DNA from: Schmidtea polychroa | Lineage: Eukaryota | Assembly: GCA_044892525.1 (NCBI GenBank) | Contig: CM097885.1 | Span: 21,516,001-21,580,000, forward strand | Reading direction: 5' to 3' | Length of the DNA: 64,000 bases | Part shown: in pieces, positions 14,040 to 46,127 of the stretch | Position numbering within the stretch: the stretch's first letter is position 1 | Layout of the letters: every line of letters begins with the position of its first letter | Made by a program: the position numbers and the translations under genes | The notes under the pieces: generated by a model | The model's input: only the letters and a program-made list of their open reading frames with translations | Databases searched by the model: none | Told to the model about the DNA's origin: nothing

Positions 14040-14940
14040 TATAATAGCTTGGAGATAATTATATTGATAAATTATAGACCTAAAACCGTAAATTACTGAA
14101 TATAAAACTACCAACTATAAATTAAAAACTTAAATTTCTAAATTGTAGACTTTAAAAGTGTAAAGTATAATCATAAAGTCTAAAATACCGAATATAGTAT
14201 TATAAGTTATAAACTATACAACTATGGATCAAAAATCTAAACTGTAGATCATAAAAGGGCAAATCATAACGATGAAGTCTGAAATGTAAGAGCGTAAAAT
14301 GTGGAATATAAATTGTCAGCAAAAACTATATAATCATAAAGTAAAAATCTAAATTTCTAAATAGTAGACTATAATTGTATAAATCATAACCATTAAGTCG
14401 AAAACATAACGTCGTAAAATATTGAACAAAAAATTTAAACCATATAATCATAAATCAAGAATCCAAATTTCTAAATGGTAGACCATGAAACTATAAATCT
14501 GAAAATAGAAAATTAGGAAGTAAAAAATATAAAATGGTAAAATGTTAAATAAACAATTTATAAATTATAAAGTGTATGATGAGAACTTCTAAAGTATGAA
14601 TTTATAAACTGTAAGATAAAAAATTGAAAATCGTAGACGAAAACCTGTAAAGTGCAAAATGTAACCTTCGAACTCATAAAATATGAATCCCTAAATTGTG
14701 AAAGCCAAAATACGAATGGTAAAATATAAAGTTATATTATCACTATTATTATTAGTGTTGCCATTATCATTATTACTATTATTATTGCTATTATTGTTCT
14801 TATTGCTATCCTTATTGTTCTCATTATTATTATTATCATTATTGTTATTATGACTATTACTATTATTATTATTACCACTACGATCATTTGTTATCCTCGT
14901 TATCACCATTTTTACGGTTATGATCATAATTAGTATTACT
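14040..14940. repeat. LTR-internal degenerate ~110-bp repeats followed by an (ATT)n-like tract (also in the 3' LTR)
   Basis: aaatttctaaa.tgtagac...aatcataa units at ~14131, 14235, 14350 and 14465; decayed ATT repeats at 14730-14940. Confidence 0.65.
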
Positions 14941-15821
14941 TACTAGGAAAGCAAAAAATCAATTATTGATTTTTTCCCCATATCTAGATTTGGAGTCAAT
15001 TCTTTTGCCCAATAAAAACGTTCCTAACTGAAAATCTATATTTAGCAACACCCCCCCCCCCAGAGAAACCTTAAGGAAAAATTCAAGACGGGGCTATGAC
15101 AATCAAGAGTTTCCAGGAGATGGTGAGGATGACTCCGGCGAACCATGCAATTGAATAAATAAGCCATAATTCGCAGAGATTTACCTACATACAGAATACA
15201 AATATTCCCGAAAAATTTCCAATTTTCGGCGAGGGACAAATTGCGGGTCCAAATCAAATATTGGGCATGAAATGTCATTCCCTGGGAAGAACTATGGGAA
15301 GACTACTCCAAGCTAATATATTCCCCTTACTCGATCGAGGTTCCTAATGTTATCGCCTAAAAATTAAGGAAGTAAAAAAATCAAATAAATTACTTGCATG
15401 TAGAGCAAACCACTCATAACGAGCACAACCGAAGGAAAGGTAAGCAGACGAAGAGCTTAGTTCGTTGCTAGTACCTGTCGCCCCAGCGTGCCCGAATTTA
15501 GTGGCCTAAAAATGACGATCTAAAAAAATTCACATTTTATTAACATATAAATTAAAATTTATAAATAGTAATTAAAATTGCCACTCGGTGGTAAGCAGGA
15601 TTTTGAATGGAAATGATTGATTTAAACAAACGAATTTTGACGAAATTTTTTTTTTGTGTTTGTTTTGATAAAGTAGGAAATCTTATTCCACTGCTCCTAA
15701 GCTTATAGATGTTAGTCTTAAAATAAAATATTTTTTTAAAAGGGAAAAAGGGTCAACAAAATCTTGTGGTTGACGTCGTATCTCAATCAGCATAGAGGGG
15801 CTTGATTATTATTTTGTAGAA

Positions 15822-16187
15822 ATGTCCTACTCTGACAGCGATAGCCACGAAGAAGCCGACCGACAGATGCTTACCAGACTCCGTACACGGTACATATGGC
15901 ACCGTATCCATGATTGGAATCGGGGTTTGGACCTCGACAACTTTGGCCCAGTAATCAGGAGTGGGCCGGAGCCGGACGCTCCGGCGTGGGTAAAAACAGA
16001 GCCCACAAACGATTTTTTGCAAGAGGCCCGCGACCGAGCGGCCATCGAGGTAGAAGCAGCTCAGATGCGACTCAAGAAGATCGAGCTACAAATCCAAGCA
16101 GAAAAAGAGGGAAAAACCGTGGAGGACCTAGAAGAGGCCGAGGCAACCCCGCGGAAGAGGGGAAGGCCTCGCAAGCGACTGAACTGA
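15822..16187 (+). CDS. LTR-encoded 121-aa protein with a C-terminal AT-hook
   Basis: GC-richer ORF within the AT-rich LTR, ending PRKRGRPRKR (RGRP AT-hook core) after a short coiled coil; preceded by ttttgtag. Confidence 0.7.
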   Translation: MSYSDSDSHEEADRQMLTRLRTRYIWHRIHDWNRGLDLDNFGPVIRSGPEPDAPAWVKTEPTNDFLQEARDRAAIEVEAAQMRLKKIELQIQAEKEGKTVEDLEEAEATPRKRGRPRKRLN

Positions 16188-16396
16188 CTCGTCGTCAAAA
16201 TTTTGTTTTTGCAAATTAACATTCAGTTGCGATTTTATTAAACTTTGATTTTAGTGATAATTATTTCAGTCCTTTTAATAAATCATCTTGTGTATTGCGT
16301 GCTTAACATCCGAAACTATGTTTATTTATAATATTGATTTTATTTTATAATTGAATGAATAGTATGCTGCAAGAATATAATCGTTGAATTTATCTA

Positions 16397-16867
16397 GTGT
16401 TCAGACTATTGGAAAATCTGCGAAGAGATAGGGCAGAAGCTCAAAAACAGTCCGAGGAGCTCCGCATACGAGTAGACAAGCTCAAGGGACGGTGCCGGGA
16501 ACTAGAAAGCACCTGGTTTAGTCCCGAGGATATGAAAAAGAAGGTGGCGCAGGTCCTTCAACTGCAGTCTCAAGCCGCGCAGGATCAGATGGAGATCCGG
16601 GCACTGAAGCTCCAGCTCCGCGCGCTAGAAACCGAGCGAAATGAACAAGTAGTTCACGGAGCCGCCATAAGCCAAATCCGGCCGTTGACCGTGGAACTAG
16701 CAGCAATATACCCCCCGGCCGCGAAAGAGAAACCCAAAAGAAAGCGGTTAGGCCGAAATATTCGGGAAAAATTGAAGAAAGCTAGACTGGCCGAATACGA
16801 GCGACAAGCAAATTCGTCACTAGCAGCTGCGACGGAATTGGCCAGTCCTACCAATAAGCCTGTTTGA
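16397..16867 (+). CDS. LTR-encoded coiled-coil protein with a basic NLS-like patch (start uncertain)
   Basis: Heptad-rich helix and KPKRKRLGR; opens at an acceptor-like tctag and has no early ATG. Confidence 0.6.
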   Translation: MFRLLENLRRDRAEAQKQSEELRIRVDKLKGRCRELESTWFSPEDMKKKVAQVLQLQSQAAQDQMEIRALKLQLRALETERNEQVVHGAAISQIRPLTVELAAIYPPAAKEKPKRKRLGRNIREKLKKARLAEYERQANSSLAAATELASPTNKPV

Positions 16868-17272
16868 ACTTATATTCGGTTTTAGGCGTTTGTAGTATTT
16901 TTATGTATTGTGGTAGTCTTCAAATAATATGTTCCTTGTTAACATACTGCACGTTTTGTAGGGATAAAATAATGACTAGTACAGTTTATGATTGTCTGGG
17001 AAATGAGAGTTTGTGCATAAGATTGGGAAAACAATTTTGATAAAGGGACCTGAGAAATCGGACACACACCTCCTATCGGTAGTCCGTGAACCCACGGAGT
17101 ACTCGACAACTATAATGCTTTGATGCGCTCACTTTTTGCGAGTACTCAACCCTTGGTACAGTACCAACGTTGATCACTCAACGGGTACCAAGCGGAAAAA
17201 CAATGTTGTATTTTGGGTTACGCTGGTAACAGCACTCAATCATTCAACCACCAGTAACCCACCATACAAATT

Positions 17273-17290
17273 TGGGGGCTCAGCCGGGAT
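17273..17290 (+). promoter_or_regulatory. Primer-binding site complementary to the tRNA-Pro 3' end
   Basis: TGGGGGCTCAGCCGGGAT matches 16/18 of the classical tRNA-Pro PBS TGGGGGCTCGTCCGGGAT; it lies 8 nt downstream of the 5' LTR. Confidence 0.9.
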
Positions 17291-20190: not shown

Positions 20191-21281
20191 TGAGATTAAA
20201 ATGAGTTGATTAAACCGGCCAAGGAGCCGATGGTAATTGAGTGAAATGATTTAAATGAAAATAAAGGAGTTGAACAAACCGGCCAGAGAGCCGATGGTAA
20301 ATAAAGGTGGATGTAGAGGTCGCGCGAACCAAAGCATCAATGATTAACTATGAAATTGATTAAACTGAAATAGATTAAGTGCGATAAATATGTAATGAGT
20401 AGAGGAGAATTATGATAAAGCGCCGGCGCAAGCGAAAATTAAACCAGTTTTTGGATGGGGAAAAGCGAACGAATAGATAGTAGTTGAATTATTGAATTTT
20501 ATTTATTAATGATATGTTTATTTTGATATTTATGTGATTAATATTATATTTCTATGATAATAATAAAAGGGATAGATAATTGATACGACTATATAGATAA
20601 TTGATACGAGTTATAGATAATTTAAAATTAACTTAAAATCAAAATGGGGCGAATAGCGAGAAGTGTAGAAAAGCTAGAAAATTTGAAGCGAAGGGACAGT
20701 AAAATAAAGGGAAAAAGGAAAGTAAATGAAGGGTTTAATAAAGAGAATTTATGATATGTACTAGAGGTGTTAATTATTTTAGAATAAAGCAAACAATTCA
20801 GAAAGAAATCAAAGAAATCAAGAAAGCAATAGAAATCAAGAGATATAGAGAAATCAATTAGAAGCGAAGAATCAAGGAAATTAATAAAACCAAATCCAAG
20901 AAGAGTTAGAGAATCGTAAAGATTAAAGCGAGAAAAATACTTAGAAAACATCGAGCTCGATTGACAAAGTAGAAAATTTATCAAAGGATATTAAAAGGAG
21001 GAAAAATTGATAGCATAGCTAACCGAACGAGGCGAAAAAGTAAAGGAAACCTCAGTTTATTGGAAAAGGAAGAGATACAAAAGGCCAAGACCAACAGAAA
21101 ACTACACAGGAAGCCAGCATCAGTAGAAACAGTATTTGAATCAGACAGTTTAACAAACGAATTTGAGAACAGCGACGATCTTAAACGAACCGAACTAGAT
21201 CCGATAAGTGACATTGAATCATCAGACGAGGAAGGAAATAGTTCAGAGTCAACCAATATAACAATTTTGTGTCAAGAAATA

Positions 21282-24200
21282 ATGACAGACGGAATTCCAA
21301 ATGTAACAGGGCTAACGGACCCACCGGAAACAAGTAATGTGCACGTCAACATTGGAGAATTCAGAGAGAAATTTCGAGGAGAGCCATTCGATGGAAATAT
21401 AAACCAGCTGGAAACGTTTATAAAGGAATTCGAAGTATACATTACGATATGTCACTGGCCAGACATAGTCGTACGAGAACGAATACCCCTATATCTAAAG
21501 GGAAGCGCCCAAGATGTATACTTGGAGGCGAAATGTGATGCAACTAAGTTGAGAACGTGGAAAGAGATCAAAGAATTTTTAATAAAAACATTCGGTACCG
21601 AAAAAGAGGGAAATCGAAAAATGTTAGACTTTCTGCATCGAAAGCAGAAATATAACGAATCCAACGCACTGTACGCATGCGAATTGAGACGACTAGCACG
21701 AGAAGCCTTCGATTCAAATCAACCAGTTCCGGAAGACAAAATAATAGCCGTATTCGTAGATGGCATGAAACGAGAGGATATACGAGCAACCTTGGGATGC
21801 CGAGCACCAGAGACGCTGGAAGAAGCACTAAAAATCGCTAACAAATGTGAAACCTACTTAACACCAATACAAGTAGCAGCAATGACAGCAGCTCCAGCAG
21901 CTCCAGCGGCAACAGCAACAACCACAAACAACCAAGTCAATAATGCAAATCCAGTAATGAATCAATTCATCCCAGGATCGCAACAGTTGTTCAAAACTCC
22001 ACAAACAAGAAACCAAAACAATGGAGGTAATATTCAAAATTTTACTAATAATTTCAGGAACAACGACATCAACAATCGAACGTGCAACATATGCCAACGA
22101 CCAGGGCATTGGAGCAATGAATGTTATAAAGCAAGGATGTGTCAAAAGTGTGGGAGAAGAGGCCACACGGAAAATGTCTGCAGAGGACCCATGATGTCTA
22201 TGAGCAGAGGAGGAACCAGAACCTGCTACAATTGTAATCAGCCTGGACACATGGCAAGAGAATGCACGATGAGAACCAAACCAAATCAACCAGGATCAAA
22301 CAATCCAGTTCAGAACACACAAATCAACCTCATGCAGGAAATCGAACAATTAAAAGATATGATCCTGCGAATACCGACTAATAACCAACAACAACGAATC
22401 AACATGATGCAGAGCACCGAGGAAATCCGGAACCAACCAAGTAAGCAACAACAAGATCAGCAACGAGTCGAATGGCAAAGATTACAAAACGAGGAAGCCA
22501 GAGAAATTCAAGAAAGATGGAAACAACGGGAAGCGAATCCCGGAAGAATAAATATGATGAGATTAACAAATAAAGAGGAATCGCACACTGCGGAGCAGTG
22601 TGTTAACAACGACGGGAGTGAACCGATAATAAACAAGGAGATAAAAACGACAAAAGAAAATGAGATCGATCCACGAACAGAATTGAGCAGTGAAGAGAAA
22701 ATACAATTGATTAAAGAATTTACCAAAGAGGAGAAAGAAAGGAGACAAAAGAGAGATGAGAGTAAAGACGAACCAAAAAGCAATGAGATAGTTACAAAAA
22801 ATCGAATTCAGAGGGTACTACTACAAAAAATCGAAGACAGAATCAAAAACGAAAACCCTACATTAACTGAGGAACAAATAAAAGAAAAAGTGAAAGAGCA
22901 TTGGTTCAGGAAGAATGAGTGGTTTGAAAAGAAGGAACCACATACCAAAGCTAAAATAAACATGCTGAGACAAATGCGGAGCGATCAGACGGATCAGGAA
23001 GATGAGAAAAGTGAGGTGAGCAGCCTGGGAGGCGAATTATTTCAGTCAAGTGAGGAAAATAACGAACCGAAAACACCTCCAAACAGTGAAACACCTCAAA
23101 GTAGTGAGGAGAGTGAAAATGATGACATGAAATCAATGATAGAAAAAGATGAAGAAGAGATATTCGAGGAAATTCTCGACACAGTAACAGAAATAGAGCG
23201 AAATGAGAGCTACATCAACGAGTTAACATACAGAAAATGCTTAAAACTTATAACTCAAGTATACCAGTGTGAAGGAGGTATAATAACGGCAGCATGGAAA
23301 GATTTAGCAACAAAATATAAAGAGAAACTAAAGGAAGCAGGCCCAGATCAATATCAAGTAAGCATTCAACACCCCGAGATTCAGATACAGACTATCGAAT
23401 TAAAAGGAACAAATACCGATGAACTGTACAACTGGGTACAGGAAAAAATGGGAACGAGCCATAAAAATAAACAATTATATGTCGATGGTTACAAAGTTAA
23501 AATAGGCATACATTTGGTAGATGCGATGATATGGCCAAACGAAACTAACATCTTAACCTTAGAGAAAACCAGGGATGACGACTCGGTAGCAGAGATGTTC
23601 AAGAAAATCCAACAAGTGTTTAACAATGAAGTAGAACCAGAATTGGAAAAGATCGAACGAAAAATAATGAAAGAAAATCAAATAATCTTAGTCAAACAAG
23701 CTATCGATCAGACAAGGAAATACATTAATAGATTGAGAGAAAGATGGCCACAACTAATGAAACAATTTGTTAAAGACGTACGAGACACGGAAATTATGAG
23801 ATTCGAAGACAAACGAGCGACAGAATTGATATCTAAATACGGAGAATACGAGAGAACCAAATGCGAGCATGAAACGATAAAAATAAAGGTGAAGTTGCCA
23901 AATGAAGAGAAACAAATAATAGAAGTTAATCCCGATTGCCAAGTTGACGAGTTAGTGCAAATCATAGATCAAGAGATCATCCAAAAAGCTCGAGAAAATA
24001 GTGAGGATGGAATGATCGAAGATGTGATAATAATGTACAACCGGCACATGCTAGAAAGAGGAGACCGAACTGTAATTTACGAACTAGGAATCTGGGAAAA
24101 TGGAGCCGTCATCAATATAATCGCGATGGATGAACCATCTGGTGGGCATAAAAACGCCACGAAAACCGAGCAACAAATTAAAAGATTCCAATGGGGAATG

Positions 24201-27200
24201 AGGGCAAAGATGGATCGAATAATAGATATTTATAACCATTGGCTAAAGGATGATAAACTAAAACTAGCAGCCTTCAATGACGAAGATTGCAAACTGATAC
24301 CATGGAAAAAAGTGTGGATCGAAAGTGAAGCTCGATGGGATTGGGAGCAGCAAAAGTTGGAACCAAATTGGATAGATAATATACCCGAAGAGATCGCAGC
24401 AGCATGGGTAAGAGAGAAACCGATCGATACTTACCAGGATATATTACCACAAGAATTCCAAAATGAATTACCATCAGGAGAAGATGAGGAGATACGAGAA
24501 CCGGTAAGGTTAGCACCATTCACGTGGAAAATTGAGAATTGGATGGAAAAGATAAAATCAGCAAAGGAAGAGAAAATCACACGATTAGTAAGTCCACCGT
24601 TCTACTCAGGATTAGGTGAGTACAAGATGAAATTGCGAATATACCCGAACGGAGACGGGATAGGTAAAGGAAGTTATGTGTCGGCATTCTTCGTCATCTG
24701 CAAAGGAAATTATGACGACAAGGTACCATGGCCGTTTAACAGAAAAGTGACGATAGCAATCGAACCATTGAAAGATAGCCTTAACAGGCATAAAGAAACA
24801 TTGAAACCAGATCCAAGGAGCGCCTGCTATCAACGACCAACAACATCAGAAAATATCGCTTCTGGGACACCTAAATTAATACGTCTAAGTTACATTGAGA
24901 ATGAGCAGTCAAAATTTGTGAAAAACAATGCTATCCAGATCAGAGTAGAAGTTGAAACAGAACAAGAAATGAACCAACGACTGAACATACCAGAAAATCA
25001 ACCGAGAATCTGTATGATGAGGAGAAGAGTGTCTGATTCAGGACATCTACCAATAGACGCCGACGCAGATGAGGAAGAAGCAGCAACATTGTTGGAAGCA
25101 CAAAAATGTAAGGAGTTGATGGAGATATTACAAAACGGGGCGAAAAATCGTCGACGAGCGGTGGTAGAACTAGCAAAATGGATAGCCGAATCATGCAAAA
25201 GGATTCAAAATCTACGAAAGATCGTTAAAGCGATTGAAGAATATCGACGGGTATACGTATGGTACCCTGAACAATTTGGTGAAATCATCCGGAAATGGAA
25301 ACAACAAGAGTGGGCCGAAAACTCACCTGAGAAATATCAATTAAAAATATTCATGCCAGATTGTGAACCAATGGAAAAGGAATTCTATACGACAGCTAAA
25401 GTCAGAGAAGTTAAAAAGAGAATACCTTATGAACTCCCATTCCACTTACAACACGAGGGACGATCATTAGACGACGATATTGAGATTGGTGTGACACCAC
25501 TCCAAGGAGAAATTGTGAACAGATTAACGGTGAGTAAAATTGCAGGTAGAGAGCTAAGGAGAAGAGAGATAAAGCAAAAATCATCCACCCAACAGCCAGG
25601 AAGTTTGGACACACCAGAAGTTCCAAATGCGGTTAGTGAAGTGACGATCGAAACAACGGGAGAAGACGAAATACTGGATGAATTACAAGAGATAGTAGAA
25701 GCAGGCGAGATTATGAGAGCATCGCAATCAGGAGATCTATTTATCGACGAAGGTGAACTGACAACTGATGATTTAGATGGATTTGTATGCGCGCAGAGAC
25801 AACCAGTGGAAACGACGGAAGCCGAGACGGATTTAGATAACGTGGAAAGAGATGCCAATAAAGATGTAACCACAACCGATGAATGGAGCAACTGGAGAGT
25901 AGATCCAGGAGCGACCACGTCAAAAGATACAACTTACAATCCGCCAAAACGGAAAGAAACCGGAACAGCTATGGATCGACGAACAAGAGGAAGACCAAAA
26001 ACAGATAAAGCAGAGATCGAACCAAAATCCAAAGTTCAGGCGCAAATGGAACAGGTAAAAACTAAAATGGATAAACTAAGTGCATTAGTAAAACAAGTTA
26101 AAGTGAAGACAAGCGTCCGAGAACAAGGGACACGATGGATAAATGACCTATTAGCCAACATGTTAGCATTAGCAAATCCAGATGTGAAAAGAGTAATGAG
26201 GAAGGATAATATCCCGACCGAAGCCAAACAATTATGGGCAGTATTGAAACCGATAATAATGAAAATCATGGATAATAAAATTCGATTAACGTTAAAAGAT
26301 CCCGTGGAACTCAGATTAATTGTGGAACATCTATTAAGCAGATCAGAGGACCAAAATCGATTTTTAGTGGGATTAGCATATTTAGTATATAACGTTATCG
26401 GTCAATATAAAAAACGAATGCCAAAATATAACGCAACGGGTTACGAATTCACAGTAACAGAAATAATTAAACGATCAATAGAACCATATATACTTGAACA
26501 AGGGGGATGGAGAAGCTTCATCGAATCAACTGGGAAGAAAGATCAAACGGAAATGATGCAAGCAAAGTTACGCGATTTGCTAACTGAATTCGAAGGAACA
26601 ATCAATATAAACGACCCAAGAGCAAGTCGAAAGGGAATGAATGCCATAATAACCACGATATTGATATGGATGATGTGTATCAAAGGAACGGAGTCATTTG
26701 CAGTATACGACTGCGACAACATAAAAATCCATGAGAAATATTCATTAAAGGATACGGAAGACTGTAAAGCGGCAAACCCAAGAAAATTACAAACAGTCAT
26801 GGCATCAGTCTCGTACAACGTATATCAAGAAGCAGATTTCATCAAAACTATGGTCCAAGAGTGTACGGTAACCAGAAAGATATTCGCACATCACTGCGGT
26901 TCATCCTCACACTCAACAATCATAGAACCAGGATTGGAATCGACAGTAATATTACTATCAAGAGAGGAATGCGAGGAAGGGTTCCGATCAGGGAGAATCC
27001 ACTTAAGGCAAGGGATTGAAATCGCTGCAGAACCAGGAAAAATAAAAACGACTCGCGTATATACGGCGGGCAGAATCACTAAAGGAGACGGAACATGTGA
27101 GACAGGAACATACACCTTGAACGGACAACTGGTTAGTGGAGTGGTCGTAATAGAAAGTTACGAAGCTAAATTGGAAAAGTATCAAGGCTACTTTGACCCT

Positions 27201-30200
27201 GACACGCAAGCAATGAAGAAATACCCAAGCTGTCTCGCATCAGATCGATCATGTTCAACCGGAATGTCAACTCTGGTATACCACGCAGATCAGAAAGTAT
27301 GTCGACTAATGTTACTCAAGACAGCAATATTCGAAGAAATCCAAGGGAAAGTGTACAGTGAACCAAAAGGAGAAGCAGAGAGACGAGCGATGGAAGAATT
27401 GAGAGCAAGGAAAGGATTCAGGGAAGACGTAATAACATCGAAATTGGAATCGGAAGTAACACCCACAGCGATAATCTCCAAAGACGATGGAATAGGAATG
27501 AGGTTCATAAAGAACAAAATGGTGAGTAAATGCGATGAGATGGTGATCAGCACCAATTATAAAGGGATCTACTTGTCGCGGAGAACCCTAGCAAATGCAG
27601 TCGGAAGACTAAGCGAAAAGGATGTCAAATTATATTTATACGCTAATAATAAGATGGATTTCTTATATCACAGAGGATTAACATCCACGGAAAAAGTCTA
27701 CCATGATCTGTTAAGAAACGATTGCCTGCTCAACAAAGAAATATTGAGAACAAAATTAGCAATGGCGATTACAAATCCAGATAACGCAATTCCACTACTA
27801 CCATTACAGGAAGGATATTTCGGACGAATCGTGGGCGAAGTGATGTACACCTACCAATGCAAAAAGATAATGGCAAGATTGCCGGAAAACCCTACAATAC
27901 CAAGGGATAAGTGTGCAAACGAACTCGAAATTATTCACGAAGGTAAACCCAGGTTTGTGCAAGCAGTCACTAGGATAATGAACCCGGTAGGGTTTCAGCC
28001 AAATCTGTTTAATTGCAGTAATGCATATGGACCAATGTATGAAAAAGAAGATGGACAATGGGTTCAATTTCCAAGTAAAACAATCGTAGTGACACCCAAG
28101 AAATTTGGATTGACGGAACTAACAACAGAATTAGAGTTCAAGCCGATAGACGTATCACAGAGTGGATTATATACACCAAAAGATCTTGAATCAGCAAGGG
28201 CCCACATGTTATTCCCAGCACACAGACAAGCGATCCTATCAAATATAGTGACTATTTCTGGAGGAAATAATTATGGGGGGAGCCCAAATTACGAGCTATT
28301 ATTATCACCAAGTCACTATCAACAAGCAACAGCAAACATGATGAAGGCTATGTGGGGTCGATTTTTGGTATTTGGCCAAATGATGGCAGGAATACTCGGA
28401 ATTATTCTGATAATACAAATAGTCAGAGTAATACTAACCCAGATGCTAGCATGTTTTGACATCTATAAGCGCGAGAGAAAAGTAAATTGGAAACTTGCAA
28501 TTGGATTCTTACCGTTCTTAGCGAAAACAATGGTGTTGCATGGACACTCAAAGGATATTCATCGAATAAAAAGATTGTTGAAAATACTAACGCAAATGAA
28601 AGGGACAGACGAAGAAGTCGGACGTAAGTTCAAAGTGATAATGAGATTAGAAGCAGAAAGAACTCAAGAGAAAGCAAAAAGAACCGGGAAGTGGAAAAAG
28701 TGGATGAACCTCAGACGAGACGATGATAGTGACAACGACAATGATGATTTCAACGACGATGATAATAACCAAGGAGGAGCAATGTTGATAAATAAAAATA
28801 CAGCCACTTGGGAAAACGAAAAAATGAAACCATGGGGATCACCGTATTCACAGACCCCATATTTACAAGCACCAACTAATGGACCAATGCGACGACCAGG
28901 AACAATGAGAGAACGGATAAGAATGGGAACCGGAAGATTACCCATACCGAACATTTATCCAACAGCTTATGAACCAAATTGGGCAGCAATGGATCCAACG
29001 ATGATCAAACAGGCTAAAAGTGTAGAACAAGAAGTGGAGACACGAACGATTGCGGTATTGCAGACACCAGCCGGACCATCATTAACCATCACGGTCGAAG
29101 TAAACGGAATAGAAATGGATGCAATGATCGATACCGGAGCAAATATTTCGGCAATAAATATGAATATGCTACCAGGCAGACTATGGCCATGCATTGAAGA
29201 GACAACCATGGATGTAATAACATGCAGCAAACAATCCATAGCGGTGGTAGGAAGAGTATGGTCAACGATTGAATATAAAGGGGTTAAAGTTACAACGTAC
29301 CTCGCAGTCATTAGACAGCTAAGCGTATCATGTATAATTGGAACAGATGTAATGCCGGAATTATTGAAAGAAATTGTGATTGATTTGAGTTCCATGAAAT
29401 TAAAAGATAAAACTGGACAGATATGCACAATGAGAACAGAAGTGAGATGCTCCGAAAAAATGATAATACCAGCACGTACCCAGACAATATGTTATGTCAA
29501 GGTCGATAACGAAGCCAAAGGAGATATGATATTTGAACCAAGTCAAAAATTCGAGAAGAGAAGGGAGCTGCCATTGGCAAGAGAAATTGTCAGTATAAAT
29601 GAGGATAACGAGATACCCATCAATATCACCAATTTTGATGAGGAAGATAAAGTAATCTACGAAAACGAGAGACTTGGAAAACTCACACCAATGATGAACA
29701 TTGAGCTACCGGAGATAAAAAGCGAGGGAGCAGACGAAAAAGAATTATGGACCATCGATAGCGAACTCCTAAATAAAGACGAAAAGGAACAACTCAGACA
29801 ACTACTGATTGAGTTTAAAGAAATTTTTGCGGCTTCAGATTTGGAATTGGGTACTAGCGATGTAACTCAACACATTATACCATTAACAGATGAGACACCC
29901 ATAACGTTAAGACCATATCGATTGGCTGAAGCACAAAAAACGGTAGCAGAGGAAGAAGTACAAAAGATGTTAGATGCTGGGGTAATAGAACCTAGTTGCT
30001 CACCATGGCAATTCCCAGTGGTAATGGTCAAAAAGAAAGATGGCACACAGAGATTTTGTATTGACTATCGGAGGTTGAACGCAGTAACAAAAAGAGATAC
30101 ATATCCACTGCCAGACATAAACGAAATGTTACAGATGTTGCATGGAGCAGCATACTTTACATCTTTAGATCTAAAGAGTGGATACTGGCAAATTAAAGTT

Positions 30201-33200
30201 AAAGAGGAAGATAGAGAAAAGACAGCCTTTACCATCGGAAAAGATTTATATCAGTTTAAAAAGATGCCATTTGGATTAACAAACGCACCTGCTTCGTTTC
30301 AGAGATGTATGAACTTTGTGACACACGGGATCAAACAATGTATGGTGTATATCGATGATCTGTTAATTTATTCAGGTACTTTCGAGCAACACTTAATCGA
30401 CATCAGAAACGTATTCATAAGACTGAAACAATGGAAGCTGAAATTGAAACCGTCAAAATGCGACTGGGCAAAGGAGAGAGTCACATTTTTAGGACACATT
30501 GTGTCGGCAAAAGGAAAAGAACCAGATCCGAGAAACGTTGAGAAAATAAAGAATTGTCCGATACCAAAAACCGTGACTCAGGTACAAGAATTTCTGGGAT
30601 TATGCGGATACTACCGCAAGTTTATCAAAAATTATGCAACTATCGCAAAACCAATTCAAGAACTAACAAAAAAAGATACTCCATTTTTGTGGGAAAGAGA
30701 ACAGCAAATAGCATTCGAATCGTTAAGAGATAAACTAATAGCCTCACCTATTCTAATACACCCAGATTTTAAAAAGCCTTTTCTACTAGCAACCGATGCC
30801 AGTGGATATGCATCAGGAGCTGTGCTAGGACAATGGGATGAGGAGAAACGAGAAAGAGTCATCGGATATTATAGCAAGACGTTCAAAAAGCACGAAAAGA
30901 ATTACTCGGTCACAGAAAGAGAAGCCTTAGCAATAATTCAGGCGATAAAACATTTCAAATATTTATTGTGGGGACACGAGATAATTATTACTACAGACCA
31001 TCAACCTCTAGTTTGGTTGGGCCAACACAAAGAAGCATCTAGCCGATTGATGAGATGGGCAATGCAGTTACAAGAATATTCCCCATACATCAAATTCAAG
31101 TCAGGAAAAGCAAACGCAAATGCAGACTGCATGTCGAGATTTGTATTTGAAGAACTCATGGATCATGACGTCAGACGAATATGCCTGATAATCGCGGAAG
31201 ATATCGATTTTACCAATCTAAAGAACGAACAAAAGGAAGACAATGAATTAAAACTAATAATTGAGTTCCTGGAAAAAAACGATATGAAAATATTCAACAA
31301 CGATGATCGACTAAAAGAACACATGGAGAAAAATCGTCACAGATATACGATCGAGAAAGGATGGCTATTGGTAATGGATGGCGACAAACGATTGATGTGT
31401 CTACCAGAAAGTAGACGGAAAGCAATTATGATTCAATACCACGATGGTAAATTGGGCGGACATATGTCAGCCAAGAAAACAGAAGCAAGGCTCAAACAGA
31501 AATATTACTGGCCAAATATGAGCGATGACGTGAAAGAATGGATAAAGAACTGCCTGATATGCGCAACCAGAAAAACAACGGGCAGTAAACTAAAGCCACC
31601 ATTGAAACCAATGCCGATACCGCCAGAACCGATGACAATGATTGCAATGGATGTAGTTGGACCACTACCAGAGACTAACAGTGGAAATGTGTATATATTG
31701 GTAATAACTGATTATCTGACTAAGTTCCCTGAAGCATTTGCGATGCCAGACCAGAAAGCACGAACGGTTGCAAGGATATTAGTGGAAGAGATCTGCTGCA
31801 GATATGGAACACCAAAACAAATCTTAACTGACCAAGGAACTAATTTCATGAGCGAGATAATAAATGAAGTGACAAATTATTTTAGAATTGCCAAATTGAG
31901 AACCTCACCATACCACCCGCAAACGAATGGTCAGACAGAAAGATTTAACGGCATACTAATAGACATGATGTCCAATTACGTGAGTAAACATCAAAAGGAC
32001 TGGGATGAATATATTAAGTTGTGTCTAATGGCTTATCGAATGTCAATACACTCAGCAACGAAAATGAGTCCGTTTAAACTCATGTATGGAAGGGAATGCA
32101 ACATGCCGATGGATCTCGAATACCAACCGCCAATCTCACAATATATGGAGATAGATGATTATGTGACAAAGTTCAAGGAGAGAATGCAAGAAATATGGAA
32201 AACCGCAGGGATGAACATCCGATTCAACCAAGAGAGTTATAAGGAATTACATGATAAAAAGAAGAACGTGCAAAACCATCAATTTAAAATCGGAGATTGG
32301 GTTATTATAGAAACACCCGAATTAATCCCAGGAACAGCAAAGAAATTACAACGTAATGGCAGAGGGCCATATGAAATCATCTATGTAAACGAGAACAACG
32401 CTAGAGTGAAGTTGGTTAACAATCCACTAATTAGACCCATTTATGTGAATACATGTCGATGCAAAGCAGTAGCGAAAACTGCCACTAAAGACCCAGAAAC
32501 AAGAAGGATAATCACGAGATCACAAACAAATGCCACAACGGAACCAGAAGTAAGCGGTAGATTAACTAGATCACAGACAAGACGAATATTCATGTTGAGA
32601 GGAGAAACAAGCAGCAGCGCCCATAAAGGAACTGAAGCAGAAAGCGAAGCTGACGCAATGGCAAGGAGCCAAGCAACATGGAATATGACAATAAAAATAG
32701 CACGAGAAATTGTACCAGAATGGGCCGATATAACCAATAAATACCAAGTATTGGGCAAACTAATGTTAGTAGCAGAAAGATATGCGAAAGGACGAAGATA
32801 TGCCGAAGGATTACAAATACCGACTCAAATATATGAACTAATCCGGAGATTACCAATCATGTTCCTAACAAGTGATTTGAGTAATAACTGGCCAATCCAT
32901 CATGCAGTGAAAGCAGGACAAGAAAAACGAGCTTTAGAGATTATACGAATAATGGAAAACTGCAAACAATCAACAAACGTCAAAAACAGTAAAGGAAAAA
33001 CTCCACTGATGAAAGCCATAGCAATAGGCGCGTCAAGAGATGTACTCAGAGAATTATTAAGAACGGGATCCACGCTGAAAGAAAAAGACAACAAACAACG
33101 AACCGTATTACGTTATGCCGTCAGGTCAAAAAGACCTAGTATAGTGAACTTTATCACAGGAAATGCAACAACCGAAGAAGCCGAGGTGTTGGGACAGAGC

Positions 33201-35348
33201 ATTGAACCAATTCTGGAAGCCATCAGAGGAAACTTAGACAGAACCGCAGCAATATTAATCAAATGGAAACAAAACGAATTAAGAGCGGAAGTAATTGATA
33301 TAAATCAATTCCAAAACAACGAAAATATCGTACTAAGAAGCGCCATATACTCAAGACCACCAATGCCAAAAACCATTAAAGCAATATTACAGAGAAATAG
33401 AACAGAATTGACAGGTAATTGGTGGGAATGCACAAAAACACATGCGATGAAAAAGCAACTAGAAATACTAGTGTGGGAATGGCACCGGAAACAACGGAAA
33501 TATCAAGGAACCAAAGAAGAACGAGAAAGTATCCACAACGACAAAAAAGAGATAATTAAAAAATACGAGGAGATGATCAAAGCAGCAAATGTCGAGGACG
33601 ACATTTTCAGGAAAACCCCGGGTGAGAGGAATGACGACGACGACGACGACGAAAGGATGGGGGATAACGATAACAACCCAGAGGAAAACGACAGAGAACA
33701 GAATCCGGAAGGCGGAGAAACAACGAGTGATGATGAGGAATTGGAAGAAGACGAAGAAGACCAATGTCGAGGTGAAGATCAAGGATTCGACAAAACGGAG
33801 AACAAAAAACGAAAGTCCCCACTACATAGCATAGTGTGTCGAAATCAAATCCAGCCAATCCTACTACAAAGAATATTTATAATATTAACATCCATCTGTT
33901 TAACAGAAACAAAAAATATAAGAATCGTAAGAGAAGCTTCCCAAGAAGGTGAAGCATTTATGATAAAAGTCAGTGATTACGACGGAAATGCCGTCGGAAT
34001 ATGTGTGCAACTAATGGAAGGAACAGGAGTAAGTTGTGATTTCAGATCGATAACAAAAGGAAAGATTTTTAGCAGCCAAAAAAGAGATCCCAGGCTATGT
34101 GGAGATTATGACATCTGTAGAGACATATCAACAGAGGAAATGGAGCTAGAAAGAGCCAACGAAACCGGAGTACATTTTCAACTCAACATTTTGGAAGAAG
34201 GTATCGAAATAGAAGATAAAGGGAGTCGATCAATTACACATGTATGCATCAGAGAAGACAGAGACATATGCATAATAACTGATATGACACAAGACCACAA
34301 ATTCTTCTGGGGAGAGGTCAAACCAAATACCCCTACTGTGGTATGCGCAGGAACACAAGGGATAGTAGTATGTAAAGGAACAAGAACTGCACCAAGAAAA
34401 GACAAGCCAAAGAGTATGGCAATGAAACAAGATCCATTGAGGGGGATAGCAACCAAGAAGCCAAACAAATCAGTTAGTACAAAAACAACAACAGAGCAAA
34501 ATCAAACCGAATTAATAACAACAACAACATGGATTAACGAAGTAATTAAAGACGAAAGACGGGAAGTGCAGATAACTATTAACCTCAACAAGAAAGGTGA
34601 AGAGGTAATTACAGTCAAAAACCAGGAAGGAGAACCAATCATAAGGATATGTGTAATGGATAAGACGGGAATAATCGACTGTACAACAACACCGATAGAC
34701 AAAGGTACAGACGTTAAAATGGAGACAGGGAAACGGAAAGAACGATACCAAGTATGTATCCTTAAGAAAGGAAGAGGAACCAGCGTATGTCAACCAATAA
34801 CTCGACAAAAACCCCAATTAATAAACATACCATGGATACCCCGAGATCAAGAAGGGGGAGAGAAACGGGAAAATCACAGTCACCTAACAGAAAAAGAGAA
34901 GGAACGATTACATCAAGCATTCAAGAAAATCAAAGCACCAGAAACAAATACCACAGGTAGTACAATATTAACGACAGAAAAAACAAATAATGGAACAACG
35001 ATCATCACAAAGATGATATGGATAACTAGCGCGATAGTAAGCACGATAATAGCGTTAGCAATGATTCAGTGGATAAGAACCACCAAAAGATGTAAACAAA
35101 AACCGAGAAACCAAAGAAAATGGCCCAAAGTGGAAAAATTTGAATACGGTATTCCAACAGAGAATCTGAATCTAGAAGAATACGAGGTGGTAGAGGATCC
35201 CGGATCCAGCGGATTGTGGATGTCGGAACTACCAAGAATACCCACACCGAACGAATGGACACACGAAGTCGATATATACCGAATAACGGACGAAAGATAT
35301 GGGGGAATGCGCACGCTGCATTCCGGCCCCATGGCGACACTGGTATAA
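21282..35348 (+). CDS. Giant single-frame Gag-accessory-Env-Pol-accessory polyprotein (~4,688 aa from the first ATG)
   Basis: Uninterrupted frame 21060-35348; first ATG at 21282; domains are listed separately below. Confidence 0.95.
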   Translation: MTDGIPNVTGLTDPPETSNVHVNIGEFREKFRGEPFDGNINQLETFIKEFEVYITICHWPDIVVRERIPLYLKGSAQDVYLEAKCDATKLRTWKEIKEFLIKTFGTEKEGNRKMLDFLHRKQKYNESNALYACELRRLAREAFDSNQPVPEDKIIAVFVDGMKREDIRATLGCRAPETLEEALKIANKCETYLTPIQVAAMTAAPAAPAATATTTNNQVNNANPVMNQFIPGSQQLFKTPQTRNQNNGGNIQNFTNNFRNNDINNRTCNICQRPGHWSNECYKARMCQKCGRRGHTENVCRGPMMSMSRGGTRTCYNCNQPGHMARECTMRTKPNQPGSNNPVQNTQINLMQEIEQLKDMILRIPTNNQQQRINMMQSTEEIRNQPSKQQQDQQRVEWQRLQNEEAREIQERWKQREANPGRINMMRLTNKEESHTAEQCVNNDGSEPIINKEIKTTKENEIDPRTELSSEEKIQLIKEFTKEEKERRQKRDESKDEPKSNEIVTKNRIQRVLLQKIEDRIKNENPTLTEEQIKEKVKEHWFRKNEWFEKKEPHTKAKINMLRQMRSDQTDQEDEKSEVSSLGGELFQSSEENNEPKTPPNSETPQSSEESENDDMKSMIEKDEEEIFEEILDTVTEIERNESYINELTYRKCLKLITQVYQCEGGIITAAWKDLATKYKEKLKEAGPDQYQVSIQHPEIQIQTIELKGTNTDELYNWVQEKMGTSHKNKQLYVDGYKVKIGIHLVDAMIWPNETNILTLEKTRDDDSVAEMFKKIQQVFNNEVEPELEKIERKIMKENQIILVKQAIDQTRKYINRLRERWPQLMKQFVKDVRDTEIMRFEDKRATELISKYGEYERTKCEHETIKIKVKLPNEEKQIIEVNPDCQVDELVQIIDQEIIQKARENSEDGMIEDVIIMYNRHMLERGDRTVIYELGIWENGAVINIIAMDEPSGGHKNATKTEQQIKRFQWGMRAKMDRIIDIYNHWLKDDKLKLAAFNDEDCKLIPWKKVWIESEARWDWEQQKLEPNWIDNIPEEIAAAWVREKPIDTYQDILPQEFQNELPSGEDEEIREPVRLAPFTWKIENWMEKIKSAKEEKITRLVSPPFYSGLGEYKMKLRIYPNGDGIGKGSYVSAFFVICKGNYDDKVPWPFNRKVTIAIEPLKDSLNRHKETLKPDPRSACYQRPTTSENIASGTPKLIRLSYIENEQSKFVKNNAIQIRVEVETEQEMNQRLNIPENQPRICMMRRRVSDSGHLPIDADADEEEAATLLEAQKCKELMEILQNGAKNRRRAVVELAKWIAESCKRIQNLRKIVKAIEEYRRVYVWYPEQFGEIIRKWKQQEWAENSPEKYQLKIFMPDCEPMEKEFYTTAKVREVKKRIPYELPFHLQHEGRSLDDDIEIGVTPLQGEIVNRLTVSKIAGRELRRREIKQKSSTQQPGSLDTPEVPNAVSEVTIETTGEDEILDELQEIVEAGEIMRASQSGDLFIDEGELTTDDLDGFVCAQRQPVETTEAETDLDNVERDANKDVTTTDEWSNWRVDPGATTSKDTTYNPPKRKETGTAMDRRTRGRPKTDKAEIEPKSKVQAQMEQVKTKMDKLSALVKQVKVKTSVREQGTRWINDLLANMLALANPDVKRVMRKDNIPTEAKQLWAVLKPIIMKIMDNKIRLTLKDPVELRLIVEHLLSRSEDQNRFLVGLAYLVYNVIGQYKKRMPKYNATGYEFTVTEIIKRSIEPYILEQGGWRSFIESTGKKDQTEMMQAKLRDLLTEFEGTININDPRASRKGMNAIITTILIWMMCIKGTESFAVYDCDNIKIHEKYSLKDTEDCKAANPRKLQTVMASVSYNVYQEADFIKTMVQECTVTRKIFAHHCGSSSHSTIIEPGLESTVILLSREECEEGFRSGRIHLRQGIEIAAEPGKIKTTRVYTAGRITKGDGTCETGTYTLNGQLVSGVVVIESYEAKLEKYQGYFDPDTQAMKKYPSCLASDRSCSTGMSTLVYHADQKVCRLMLLKTAIFEEIQGKVYSEPKGEAERRAMEELRARKGFREDVITSKLESEVTPTAIISKDDGIGMRFIKNKMVSKCDEMVISTNYKGIYLSRRTLANAVGRLSEKDVKLYLYANNKMDFLYHRGLTSTEKVYHDLLRNDCLLNKEILRTKLAMAITNPDNAIPLLPLQEGYFGRIVGEVMYTYQCKKIMARLPENPTIPRDKCANELEIIHEGKPRFVQAVTRIMNPVGFQPNLFNCSNAYGPMYEKEDGQWVQFPSKTIVVTPKKFGLTELTTELEFKPIDVSQSGLYTPKDLESARAHMLFPAHRQAILSNIVTISGGNNYGGSPNYELLLSPSHYQQATANMMKAMWGRFLVFGQMMAGILGIILIIQIVRVILTQMLACFDIYKRERKVNWKLAIGFLPFLAKTMVLHGHSKDIHRIKRLLKILTQMKGTDEEVGRKFKVIMRLEAERTQEKAKRTGKWKKWMNLRRDDDSDNDNDDFNDDDNNQGGAMLINKNTATWENEKMKPWGSPYSQTPYLQAPTNGPMRRPGTMRERIRMGTGRLPIPNIYPTAYEPNWAAMDPTMIKQAKSVEQEVETRTIAVLQTPAGPSLTITVEVNGIEMDAMIDTGANISAINMNMLPGRLWPCIEETTMDVITCSKQSIAVVGRVWSTIEYKGVKVTTYLAVIRQLSVSCIIGTDVMPELLKEIVIDLSSMKLKDKTGQICTMRTEVRCSEKMIIPARTQTICYVKVDNEAKGDMIFEPSQKFEKRRELPLAREIVSINEDNEIPINITNFDEEDKVIYENERLGKLTPMMNIELPEIKSEGADEKELWTIDSELLNKDEKEQLRQLLIEFKEIFAASDLELGTSDVTQHIIPLTDETPITLRPYRLAEAQKTVAEEEVQKMLDAGVIEPSCSPWQFPVVMVKKKDGTQRFCIDYRRLNAVTKRDTYPLPDINEMLQMLHGAAYFTSLDLKSGYWQIKVKEEDREKTAFTIGKDLYQFKKMPFGLTNAPASFQRCMNFVTHGIKQCMVYIDDLLIYSGTFEQHLIDIRNVFIRLKQWKLKLKPSKCDWAKERVTFLGHIVSAKGKEPDPRNVEKIKNCPIPKTVTQVQEFLGLCGYYRKFIKNYATIAKPIQELTKKDTPFLWEREQQIAFESLRDKLIASPILIHPDFKKPFLLATDASGYASGAVLGQWDEEKRERVIGYYSKTFKKHEKNYSVTEREALAIIQAIKHFKYLLWGHEIIITTDHQPLVWLGQHKEASSRLMRWAMQLQEYSPYIKFKSGKANANADCMSRFVFEELMDHDVRRICLIIAEDIDFTNLKNEQKEDNELKLIIEFLEKNDMKIFNNDDRLKEHMEKNRHRYTIEKGWLLVMDGDKRLMCLPESRRKAIMIQYHDGKLGGHMSAKKTEARLKQKYYWPNMSDDVKEWIKNCLICATRKTTGSKLKPPLKPMPIPPEPMTMIAMDVVGPLPETNSGNVYILVITDYLTKFPEAFAMPDQKARTVARILVEEICCRYGTPKQILTDQGTNFMSEIINEVTNYFRIAKLRTSPYHPQTNGQTERFNGILIDMMSNYVSKHQKDWDEYIKLCLMAYRMSIHSATKMSPFKLMYGRECNMPMDLEYQPPISQYMEIDDYVTKFKERMQEIWKTAGMNIRFNQESYKELHDKKKNVQNHQFKIGDWVIIETPELIPGTAKKLQRNGRGPYEIIYVNENNARVKLVNNPLIRPIYVNTCRCKAVAKTATKDPETRRIITRSQTNATTEPEVSGRLTRSQTRRIFMLRGETSSSAHKGTEAESEADAMARSQATWNMTIKIAREIVPEWADITNKYQVLGKLMLVAERYAKGRRYAEGLQIPTQIYELIRRLPIMFLTSDLSNNWPIHHAVKAGQEKRALEIIRIMENCKQSTNVKNSKGKTPLMKAIAIGASRDVLRELLRTGSTLKEKDNKQRTVLRYAVRSKRPSIVNFITGNATTEEAEVLGQSIEPILEAIRGNLDRTAAILIKWKQNELRAEVIDINQFQNNENIVLRSAIYSRPPMPKTIKAILQRNRTELTGNWWECTKTHAMKKQLEILVWEWHRKQRKYQGTKEERESIHNDKKEIIKKYEEMIKAANVEDDIFRKTPGERNDDDDDDERMGDNDNNPEENDREQNPEGGETTSDDEELEEDEEDQCRGEDQGFDKTENKKRKSPLHSIVCRNQIQPILLQRIFIILTSICLTETKNIRIVREASQEGEAFMIKVSDYDGNAVGICVQLMEGTGVSCDFRSITKGKIFSSQKRDPRLCGDYDICRDISTEEMELERANETGVHFQLNILEEGIEIEDKGSRSITHVCIREDRDICIITDMTQDHKFFWGEVKPNTPTVVCAGTQGIVVCKGTRTAPRKDKPKSMAMKQDPLRGIATKKPNKSVSTKTTTEQNQTELITTTTWINEVIKDERREVQITINLNKKGEEVITVKNQEGEPIIRICVMDKTGIIDCTTTPIDKGTDVKMETGKRKERYQVCILKKGRGTSVCQPITRQKPQLINIPWIPRDQEGGEKRENHSHLTEKEKERLHQAFKKIKAPETNTTGSTILTTEKTNNGTTIITKMIWITSAIVSTIIALAMIQWIRTTKRCKQKPRNQRKWPKVEKFEYGIPTENLNLEEYEVVEDPGSSGLWMSELPRIPTPNEWTHEVDIYRITDERYGGMRTLHSGPMATLV
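21384..22265 (+). other. gag: Gag capsid-like domain and three CCHC zinc knuckles
   Basis: PFDGN..F..EF, YLKGSA, TW..IKE, Q...ES...Y, FVDGM, P.TLEEA; knuckles CNICQRPGHWSNEC, CQKCGRRGHTENVC and CYNCNQPGHMAREC. Confidence 0.92.
24519..24956 (+). other. TRAF-type MATH domain inside the polyprotein
   Basis: FTWKIENW...SPPFYSG..YKMKLRIYPNGDG.GKGSYVSAFFVICKG.YD..VPWPF.RKVT. Confidence 0.92.
26637..28540 (+). other. Envelope-like glycoprotein (chuvirus G / class III fusion-like) with internal signal peptide and TM anchor
   Basis: Signal-like MNAIITTILIWMMCIKGTES, then AVYDC..YSL....C..VYQ..V.EC.V...HCG..SHS and a Cys-rich ectodomain, then W.RFLVFGQMMAGILGIILIIQIV. Confidence 0.75.
29080..32470 (+). 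other. pol: Pol: aspartic protease, RT, RNase H, integrase
   Basis: IDTGA (29130) and IIGTD; LDLKSGYWQ, MPFGL and YIDD (30348); TDAS, EREALA, TDH and NADCMSR; HHCC zinc finger (H..GH..CLIC), MDVVGP, TDQG and GQTERFN. All catalytic residues are present. Confidence 0.98.
32883..33270 (+). other. Ankyrin repeats (about 3-4) downstream of integrase
   Basis: WPIHHAVKAG, NSKGKTPLMKAIAIG...LLRTG, DNKQRTVLRYAV, PILEAIRGN. Confidence 0.85.
33858..35348 (+). other. C-terminal type I membrane protein module
   Basis: Signal-like RIFIILTSICLTET, paired-Cys beta-rich repeats, Thr-rich stalk, TM MIWITSAIVSTIIALAMIQWI followed by a basic stop-transfer and a tail. Confidence 0.7.
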
Positions 35349-45400: not shown

Positions 45401-46127
45401 TATGACAATCAAGAGTTTCCAGGAGATGGTGAGGATGACTCCGGCGAACCATGCAATTGAATAAATAAGCCATAATTCGCAGAGATTTACCTACATACAG
45501 AATACAAATATTCCCGAAAAATTTCCAATTTTCGGCGAGGGACAAATTGCGGGTCCAAATCAAATATTGGGCATGAAATGTCATTCCCTGGGAAGAACTA
45601 TGGGAAGACTACTCCAAGCTAATATATTCCCCTTACTCGATCGAGGTTCCTAATGTTATCGCCTAAAAATTAAGGAAGTAAAAAAATCAAATAAATTACT
45701 TGCATGTAGAGCAAACCACTCATAACGAGCACAACCGAAGGAAAGGTAAGCAGACGAAGAGCTTAGTTCGTTGCTAGTACCTGTCGCCCCAGCGTGCCCG
45801 AATTTAGTGGCCTAAAAATGACGATCTAAAAAAATTCACATTTTATTAACATATAAATTAAAATTTATAAATAGTAATTAAAATTGCCACTCGGTGGTAA
45901 GCAGGATTTTGAATGGAAATGATTGATTTAAACAAACGAATTTTGACGAAATTTTTTTTTTGTGTTTGTTTTGATAAAGTAGGAAATCTTATTCCACTGC
46001 TCCTAAGCTTATAGATGTTAGTCTTAAAATAAAATATTTTTTTAAAAGGGAAAAAGGGTCAACAAAATCTTGTGGTTGACGTCGTATCTCAATCAGCATA
46101 GAGGGGCTTGATTATTATTTTGTAGAA

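Follow-up and report, generated by a model that had tools for sequence, protein, structure and literature searches.

A giant retrovirus-like element lies in a 64,000-nucleotide stretch of the Schmidtea polychroa genome (GCA_044892525.1, contig CM097885.1, positions 21,516,001 to 21,580,000 of the forward strand; this whole stretch is the window, and nucleotide positions are given within it). Its main polyprotein, ORF1, carries a recurrent six-residue motif at the borders between domains, and these hexamers are likely to be sites recognized by the dimeric aspartic protease that the element itself encodes, as judged from the protein sequence, a structure model and analogy with known retrotransposon sites. 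From the motifs, their common frame, their positions between domains and the low-confidence model linkers in which they fall we infer the cutting itself, the scissile bond, the signal peptidase cuts discussed below and the list of products. A sequence-only reading of the window had listed eight hexamers with the pattern [RKQ]-I-[NCF]-[MLT]-[MLI] and had taken them for sites of this protease. All eight are present in the ORF1 frame, at amino acids (aa) 450, 475, 525, 661, 1345, 2816, 3402 and 3871, and the pattern has no other match across the 4,791-aa protein; the domain borders to which they had been assigned agree with the Pfam limits of the MATH, protease, RNase H, integrase and ankyrin domains. 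Two further candidates, QVA/AMT and TIA/VLQ, both at canonical borders, had been missed and bring the total to ten. In the following list a slash marks the predicted cut and RT stands for reverse transcriptase:

20973..35348, + strand, ORF1, 4,791 aa from stop to stop, first Met at aa 104 (nucleotide 21282)
21870..21887, + strand, QVA/AMT, extra candidate site at the capsid/nucleocapsid border, weaker, fits the P0001-derived pattern [IV]-[NCFA]-[MLTVA]-[MLI]; the identical six residues occur in relative P0180
22320..22337, + strand, QIN/LMQ, candidate site at the nucleocapsid end, leave-one-out rank 1 of 4779
22395..22412, + strand, RIN/MMQ, candidate site in the spacer, leave-one-out rank 1
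22545..22562, + strand, RIN/MMR, candidate site in the spacer, leave-one-out rank 1
22953..22970, + strand, KIN/MLR, candidate site at the start of the first cargo block, leave-one-out rank 1
25005..25022, + strand, RIC/MMR, the sole candidate site between cargo and cargo, leave-one-out rank 1
29046..29063, + strand, TIA/VLQ, extra candidate site at the protease N-terminus, weaker, in a low-confidence segment of the model
29418..29435, + strand, QIC/TMR, candidate site at the protease / dUTPase-like border, leave-one-out rank 1 of 4,779, the least secure
31176..31193, + strand, RIC/LII, candidate site at the RNase H / integrase border, leave-one-out rank 5
32583..32600, + strand, RIF/MLR, candidate site at the border of integrase and ankyrin block, leave-one-out rank 2

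The four-residue core I-[NCF]-[MLT]-[MLI] alone recovers exactly the same eight sites in the ORF1 protein, with R, K or Q ahead of the core in all eight (background 0.20) and R or Q after it in seven of them (background 0.11). Disorder-promoting residues make up 0.77-0.87 of the flanks of the six N-terminal sites. Around the four Gag-proximal sites the likeness of the flanking DNA is 0.18-0.36 against a background of 0.31, and the codons differ at silent positions; a recent tandem duplication is thus ruled out as their origin, and the hexamers are kept islands rather than a fresh tandem repeat.

The scissile bond would lie after the third residue, [RKQ]-I-x/[MLT]-[MLI]-[RQ], with predicted subsites consisting of Arg, Lys or Gln at P3, Ile at P2, Asn, Cys, Phe or Ala at P1, hydrophobic residues at P1' and P2' and mostly Arg or Gln at P3'; the mean hydropathy of the ten sites from P3 to P3' is -3.8, +4.5, 0.0, +2.2, +2.7 and -2.9. 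The cut is placed here because of the Ty3 junction between RT and integrase and the likeness to Ty1 and foamy virus sites. The Ty3 RT chain of structure 4OL8 ends in S-R-A-V-Y, which we take to be the mature terminus, and the Gag-Pol of 7Q5B continues with T-I-T, so that the junction, x-V-x/T-I just after RNase H, shares with RIC/LII the shape x-[IV]-x/[LT]-I. According to the available part of PMC6952103, the sites of Ty1, a Pseudoviridae element with three of them as compared with about ten here, have Val or Ile at P2 and P2' and hydrophilic residues at P3 and P3'. Shared with the present sites are Val/Ile at P2, the hydrophobic P2' and the hydrophilic P3 and P3', and the Ty1 protease/integrase site also has Asn at P1, whereas P1' is hydrophilic on average in Ty1 and Met, Leu, Thr, Val or Ala here. 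Foamy virus sites are said, in the portion of PMC3185560 available, to resemble those of yeast retrotransposons. The ten sites fit the type to be expected, with a beta-branched P2, a hydrophobic P2' and polar P3 and P3'. Unlike the Gag3-Pol3 of Ty3 (Metaviridae), the polyprotein described here has some ten sites with a tight common sequence and no frameshift, and places Env and cargo between Gag and Pol.

Under a naive calculation 0.25 matches to the eight-site pattern are expected by chance, and no more than 3 appeared in any of 5,000 full shuffles, or 4 in any of 5,000 local ones. We point out that this pattern was drawn after the sites had been seen; two further controls gave the shuffled proteins equal freedom. 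In a greedy de novo motif search, in which the seed numbers differed between runs, this motif family was the best six-residue motif at 6, 8, 10 and 12 sites, while the top motif at four sites was the zinc knuckle. The score was reached by 1 of 102 shuffles at eight sites and by 0 of 88 at both ten and twelve (z 2.5-4.7), and the de novo set overlapped the original one partly, in four of six sites and in five of eight. The recurrence of the hexamer on its own is therefore real but modest, and position is the better evidence.

The two halves of the set also predict each other. A profile built from the four Gag-proximal sites, applied to 4,782 positions, places 1345 at rank 1, 3871 at rank 2 and 2816 at rank 7, with 3402 only at 62; one built from three Pol sites ranks 1345, 525, 475, 661 and 450 at 1, 3, 6, 7 and 12. 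Nine separate accessory open reading frames (ORFs; 2,631 aa) give a top score of at most 6.9, compared with 10.8-20.5 for the ten sites, which are themselves the training set. A weak look-alike of the motif, E-I-C-I-M-M (aa 49-54, score 3.9), is seen in an upstream RING-finger ORF at 17990-18472, and a decoy, RICVMD at 34644, lies inside the C-terminal membrane protein.

The retropepsin catalytic motif D-[TS]-G is intact, as DTG at aa 2720, in the same polyprotein as the sites, and the Pol region would be divided as follows:

29055..29426, + strand, aspartic protease, 124 aa if both flanking sites are cut, DTG at 29130-29138
29427..31184, + strand, predicted product of dUTPase-like domain, RT and RNase H, 586 aa
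31185..32591, + strand, integrase, 469 aa

Cutting at TIA/VLQ would put the catalytic Asp at mature position 26, as against 25 in the HIV-1 protease. An AlphaFold2 model of aa 2680-3879, built on a 73-sequence alignment (mean predicted local distance difference test score, pLDDT, 84.7), has 114 of its 1,200 residues at pLDDT<50, and the sites at 2692, 2816, 3402 and 3871, four out of four, all overlap such segments. No motif falls in one low-confidence internal linker, aa 2909-2921, which separates the dUTPase-like domain from RT. A fold search with this model returned RT and integrase structures only, among the matches listed, and a single-sequence fold of the protease region reached a pLDDT of only 34. 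That QICTMR might be the last dimer-interface strand of the protease is disfavoured by its place in a low-confidence break of the model. Just ahead of the integrase C-terminal site, at 32505-32582, a basic I/L-T-R-S motif occurs twice, with R-Y-[PK]-L-R-[SN]-R at this place in several relatives; it may be a nuclear or chromatin-binding tail.

Conservation was addressed in a set of 285 proteins, 278 of which have an RT-RNase H match; after 14 near-duplicates of P0003 had been dropped, a tree of 264 grouped this protein (P0001) with ten others (support 0.97) and with P0093 as sister. These eleven relatives, with 38-48% identity in Pol among those compared, form what we call the Burro clade, after the planarian elements discussed below, and the comparison reaches the Pol and post-nucleocapsid borders and not the cargo borders at 661 or 1345. 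Our conclusions rest on a narrow pattern derived from P0001 only, [IV]-[NCFA]-[MLTVA]-[MLI]. It occurs in the RNase H/integrase linker of 3 of the 11 Burro-clade relatives (0.4 expected) and in the protease N-terminal window of 3 of 13 protease domains (0.2 expected), with 0/11, 0/11 and 0/13 in control windows; after the last zinc knuckle it was found in neither of two Burro relatives. Among other Ty3/gypsy elements (102 dereplicated proteins) the RNase H/integrase border matches in 9 of the 74 with an anchor (1.7 expected), and the remaining windows are unenriched (1/36, 0/41, 0/38, 1/20). A wider pattern, tuned after the relatives had been viewed and hence not blind for the Burro clade, matches at 8 of 11 RNase H/integrase linkers, before 8 of 13 proteases, after 0 of 7 proteases and after 4 of 10 integrases. 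By eye, P0046 has R-I-C-A-L-Q at the RNase H/integrase border and Q-I-S-M-L-Q after integrase, and in P0003 D-I-C-T-L-W stands as far from the catalytic Asp as TIA/VLQ does. The sequence comparison thus suggests a loose type of site common to two canonical borders, a tight form specific to this family, and a post-protease site that is not shared. Conservation of the motif, which the sequence-only reading had made a test of its proposal, goes no further than an enrichment of the looser [IV]-small-hydrophobic-hydrophobic pattern at these two borders; it does not extend to the exact motif, which is rare, or to the post-protease position.

Variation among closer copies adds little. Within the P0003 cluster, whose 15 members are nearly identical, 131 of 4,029 positions vary, with 1 of 36 site residues variable as compared with 14 of 360 flank residues, which is too few to judge the sites. 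Contigs of four runs, aligned over 21800-32800, are likewise uninformative: among 40 of 1,248 differences none falls in the ten hexamers, where about 0.65 would be expected. Two diverged contigs of run X1 resume their alignment at 22318-22319, at the first site, which is a weak hint. In P0003, P0042, P0046 and P0068 there are extra protease-like domains (up to three, one of them after integrase), and a site-like tetrapeptide stands before most of them. No related locus turned up in scans of metagenome and viral contigs.

Several results weigh against protease recognition and have to be set beside the evidence above. Our reading of the sites as cut is a prediction, and the strictly homologous position of the Ty3 cut lies 14 residues upstream of RIC/LII. 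A single-seed similarity statistic shows no excess (9.4, compared with 8.7-10.0 in 25 shuffles), and at six sites the de novo score was reached by 3 of 204 shuffles (0/14, 3/102, 0/88), a modest excess. The de novo set includes decoys at 429, within zinc knuckle 3, and at 4558, in a predicted luminal domain; in the profile scores these two (10.0 and 11.6) and a third at 3638 (9.5) do as well as the weakest sites. Two of the four modelled sites are internal and two stand at model ends that we chose ourselves, and low pLDDT may reflect a poor alignment there. The relatives are non-independent samples. In the Burro relatives the narrow pattern is absent after the protease (0/7) and occurs once after integrase (1/10), where the match falls in a signal-like stretch. 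The four-residue core matches 1 of 43 border windows of the Burro relatives, and the exact eight-site pattern occurs once in 14 relatives (in P0051, after the post-nucleocapsid coiled coil). A profile from the eight sites performs weakly on relatives (Fisher p 0.08 for RNase H/integrase, 0.01 for the protease N-terminus, 0.83 for its C-terminus and 0.11 for the integrase C-terminus), and de novo searching of P0003, P0046, P0051 and P0093 turned up no motif of this kind.

One alternative is that only some of the sites are used, which we consider unlikely but the strongest of three. The canonical ones (capsid/nucleocapsid, nucleocapsid end, protease N-terminus, RNase H/integrase, integrase C-terminus) would then be cut, QIC/TMR would stay uncut, leaving the protease fused to the dUTPase-like domain and RT as in the PR-RT of foamy virus, and some spacer and cargo sites would be redundant or vestigial. 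Not one of the seven Burro relatives or 41 other representatives has a post-protease motif, the protease of the relatives runs directly into the dUTPase-like domain, and foamy viruses retain the protease on RT (PMC6669543 and PMC3185560, each in the portion available). However, QICTMR ranks first of 4,779 when left out of its own profile and sits in the sole low-confidence break between protease and dUTPase-like domain, and the cargo/cargo site at 1345 is the best match of all.

A second alternative, more doubtful still, holds that the hexamer, as a short linear motif, has a binding or structural role and is not cut, for example a strand added to a sheet of MATH, of the ubiquitin-like region or of a host factor. 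Binding would suit a hydrophobic core that is flanked by basic residues and placed in disordered linkers, and the motif is unusually tight when set against the description, in the available text of PMC3185560, of retroviral proteases as having no consensus substrate sequence. Yet the hexamers stand at borders at which processing of a Ty3/gypsy polyprotein is required, their distance from the catalytic Asp is right, and the looser versions found before 8 of 13 protease domains in relatives (by the pattern tuned by eye) include those of the post-integrase copies. That the pattern is a post hoc one, made up of old duplicated post-nucleocapsid spacers and chance look-alikes in an Ile/Met/Arg-rich protein, is very improbable: the single-seed statistic, the three shuffles at six sites, the decoys at 429 and 4558 and the rarity of the exact motif in relatives speak for it, but the Gag- and Pol-trained profiles predict each other's sites, the sites coincide with model linkers and none of 88 shuffles reaches the score of the larger motif sets. 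Protease recognition remains the reading that we prefer; the linkers, the Ty3/Ty1 register and the looser pattern in relatives all argue for it, and its weak place is QIC/TMR, which lacks a counterpart in the seven relatives.

If all ten sites were cut, the products of ORF1 would begin with capsid and nucleocapsid, followed by three spacers (25, 50 and 136 aa), a 684-aa block with MATH at its end and a 561-aa block; after these would come protease, the dUTPase-like-RT-RNase H protein, integrase and an ankyrin block. The parts outside the Pol enzymes are:

21384..21857, + strand, capsid (Ty3_capsid / Retrotrans_gag; Pfam E 1.2e-06 and 4.5e-07)
22083..22265, + strand, three CCHC zinc knuckles (Pfam)
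22962..25013, + strand, predicted 684-aa cargo block with an acidic region, a weak ubiquitin-like match at aa ~963-1056 and MATH at its C-terminal end
24519-24953, + strand, MATH, aa 1183-1327 (Pfam)
25014..26696, + strand, predicted cargo block of 561 aa that ends in a signal-like leader, with Ubi/SUMO-like and BCL2-like regions according to the literature (PMC6431247, portion available)
26637..26696, + strand, internal signal-peptide-like leader of Env, aa 1889-1908, a hydrophobic stretch
26697..28436, + strand, Env-like glycoprotein ectodomain and transmembrane helix (aa 2470-2488; Pfam, hydropathy)
32592..33911, + strand, predicted 440-aa ankyrin block, repeats at 32895-33158, ending in a second signal-like leader at 33870-33911 (aa 4300-4313)
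33912..35345, + strand, C-terminal type I membrane protein, transmembrane helix at 35013-35069 (aa 4681-4699; hydropathy)

The sequence-only reading had further proposed that each cargo domain is released as a protein of its own, a proposal that the evidence does not support. No motif occurs between aa 664 and 1344, which hold the ubiquitin-like region and MATH, or between 1348 and 1908, so that the cargo would leave as blocks of 684 and 561 aa and not as single domains, and the Env-like and C-terminal membrane proteins have leaders of their own. Seven of the eight original sites can be explained by processing that every element of this type requires, the trimming of nucleocapsid, spacers, protease, RT or integrase. 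Only the site at 25005 (aa 1345) divides cargo from cargo; that it is the best match of all sites is the one good argument for cargo fitted into processing. The ubiquitin-like matches, upstream of MATH, fall under the Pfam cut-offs, and the Ubi/SUMO-like and BCL2-like regions of the 561-aa block have no match in Pfam or ESM Atlas. Neither the pre-Env region nor the C-terminal ectodomain gave a match in ESM Atlas, and Pfam and ESM Atlas both lack one for the membrane protein at the C-terminus.

The Env-like protein (Pfam Monjiviricetes_fusion PF24664, E 9.8e-68, aa 2176-2499) lies in frame between Gag and Pol. Since it and the C-terminal membrane protein both have signal-peptide-like leaders, they are probably freed by host signal peptidase, which would cut at aa 1908 and 4313. 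A counterpart of the Env leader is found at equal distance before a YDC motif in four of four relatives that hold the start of Env, and the leader itself falls under the 19-residue hydropathy threshold used here. All ten sites are on the predicted cytosolic side, a weak point in favour as that side is about four fifths of the protein. The layout of leader and C-terminal membrane protein (33870-35345) is similar in relatives. If the leaders are cut, Gag would be parted from Env-Pol during translation, and Pol would ride on the cytoplasmic tail of Env and not on Gag. We therefore put forward, tentatively and as a possibility that we rate below even chances, a two-enzyme scheme in which signal peptidase splits Gag-cargo from Env-Pol co-translationally and Pol enters the particle attached to Env as its cytoplasmic tail, and a retropepsin with an unusually strict consensus frees the enzymes and two regulatory blocks, one soluble and MATH-ended, the other BCL2-like and anchored by the signal peptide of Env.

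The element as a whole is a Burro/GYPSM1-like giant Ty3/gypsy LTR (long terminal repeat) retrotransposon, of a kind already known from planarians, and was assigned by its architecture; no named Burro family reference appeared among the sequence-search matches. It spans 12510-47570 (>30 kb, ~35 kb), with ATAG at both outer flanks:

12510..17264, + strand, 5' LTR, 4,755 bp, direct repeat of 42816-47570 with 1 mismatch
17273..17290, + strand, primer-binding-site-like sequence following the 5' LTR, which we take to resemble tRNA-Pro
42816..47570, + strand, 3' LTR, paired with the 5' LTR

ORF1 runs in a single frame from Gag through cargo, Env-like protein, Pol and ankyrin block to the membrane protein. 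The Pfam order is capsid, three zinc knuckles, MATH, a Monjiviricetes-type fusion glycoprotein, aspartic protease (aa 2706-2797), RT, RNase H (up to 3369), integrase (from 3478) and ankyrin (3975-4062), and separate ORFs encode TRAF, BIR-RING and RING proteins. These features match those of Burro/GYPSM1-like elements: more than 30 kb, long LTRs, one ORF of ~4.8-5.1k aa, CCHC Gag to PR-RT-RH-IN with Env between Gag and Pol, and MATH, ankyrin and BIR cargo (Pfam). ORF1 is open for 103 codons ahead of its first ATG (20973-21281) and relative P0181 is 86% identical over aa 30-191, a conservation which suggests a non-ATG or spliced start. Downstream of ORF1, at 36003-38785, lie complete ORFs of TRAF-like (RING-like, zinc fingers and MATH) and IAP-like (BIR and RING) type; beyond them three more, coiled-coil or membrane, reach 42460. 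ORFs of 137 and 159 aa are found on the + strand in each LTR (15774-16867), the leader before ORF1 has a 131-bp tandem repeat of ~2.4 copies (19876-20190), and a clear polypurine tract was not found directly ahead of the 3' LTR (42770-42815).

Burro and GYPSM1 were described as giant gypsy-like planarian LTR retrotransposons (Jurka 2007 and Grohme 2018, via the available portion of PMC6431247). That account shares with our element a length of more than 30 kb, long LTRs, one ORF of ~4.8k aa (4,873 there, 4,791 here), three CCHC knuckles, MATH, an in-frame Env between Gag and Pol, a dUTPase-like domain between protease and RT, ankyrin, and BIR and RING in accessory ORFs; the portion available gives neither processing sites nor signal-peptide topology. 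A processing map for Burro-like elements was not found in the literature searched, with most subscription papers, including Grohme 2018, outside its scope. The accessible part of PMC13524379 has no mention of Burro or planarians, that of PMC11410931 mentions Burro once, and that of PMC10076021 gives cut positions for PEG10 and no usable sequence rule. As for the topology, hepatitis C virus-type polyproteins and this element both place their enzymes downstream of a membrane anchor. The polyprotein of flaviviruses is cut by a viral protease and by host signal peptidase. In hepatitis C virus the core-E1 region is alike, in that a cytosolic capsid region ends in the envelope signal peptide and is likewise cut by viral protease and signal peptidase (PMC5402940, in the part available). 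This is an analogy of topology and not kinship, as hepatitis C virus is an unrelated RNA virus with another class of protease.

Protease sites at the borders of a Ty3/gypsy polyprotein are an expected core finding, and the element itself is published; the site map and the two-enzyme topology would be new if upheld. Burro-like elements have been noted for their size and their apoptosis and ubiquitin cargo, and the map gives the 4.8k-aa ORF predicted products with sizes and termini. It also brings out a packaging problem, as an Env that stands in frame between Gag and Pol and has a signal peptide means that Pol cannot remain linked to Gag. A near-consensus site would, if true, make this an unusual retropepsin.

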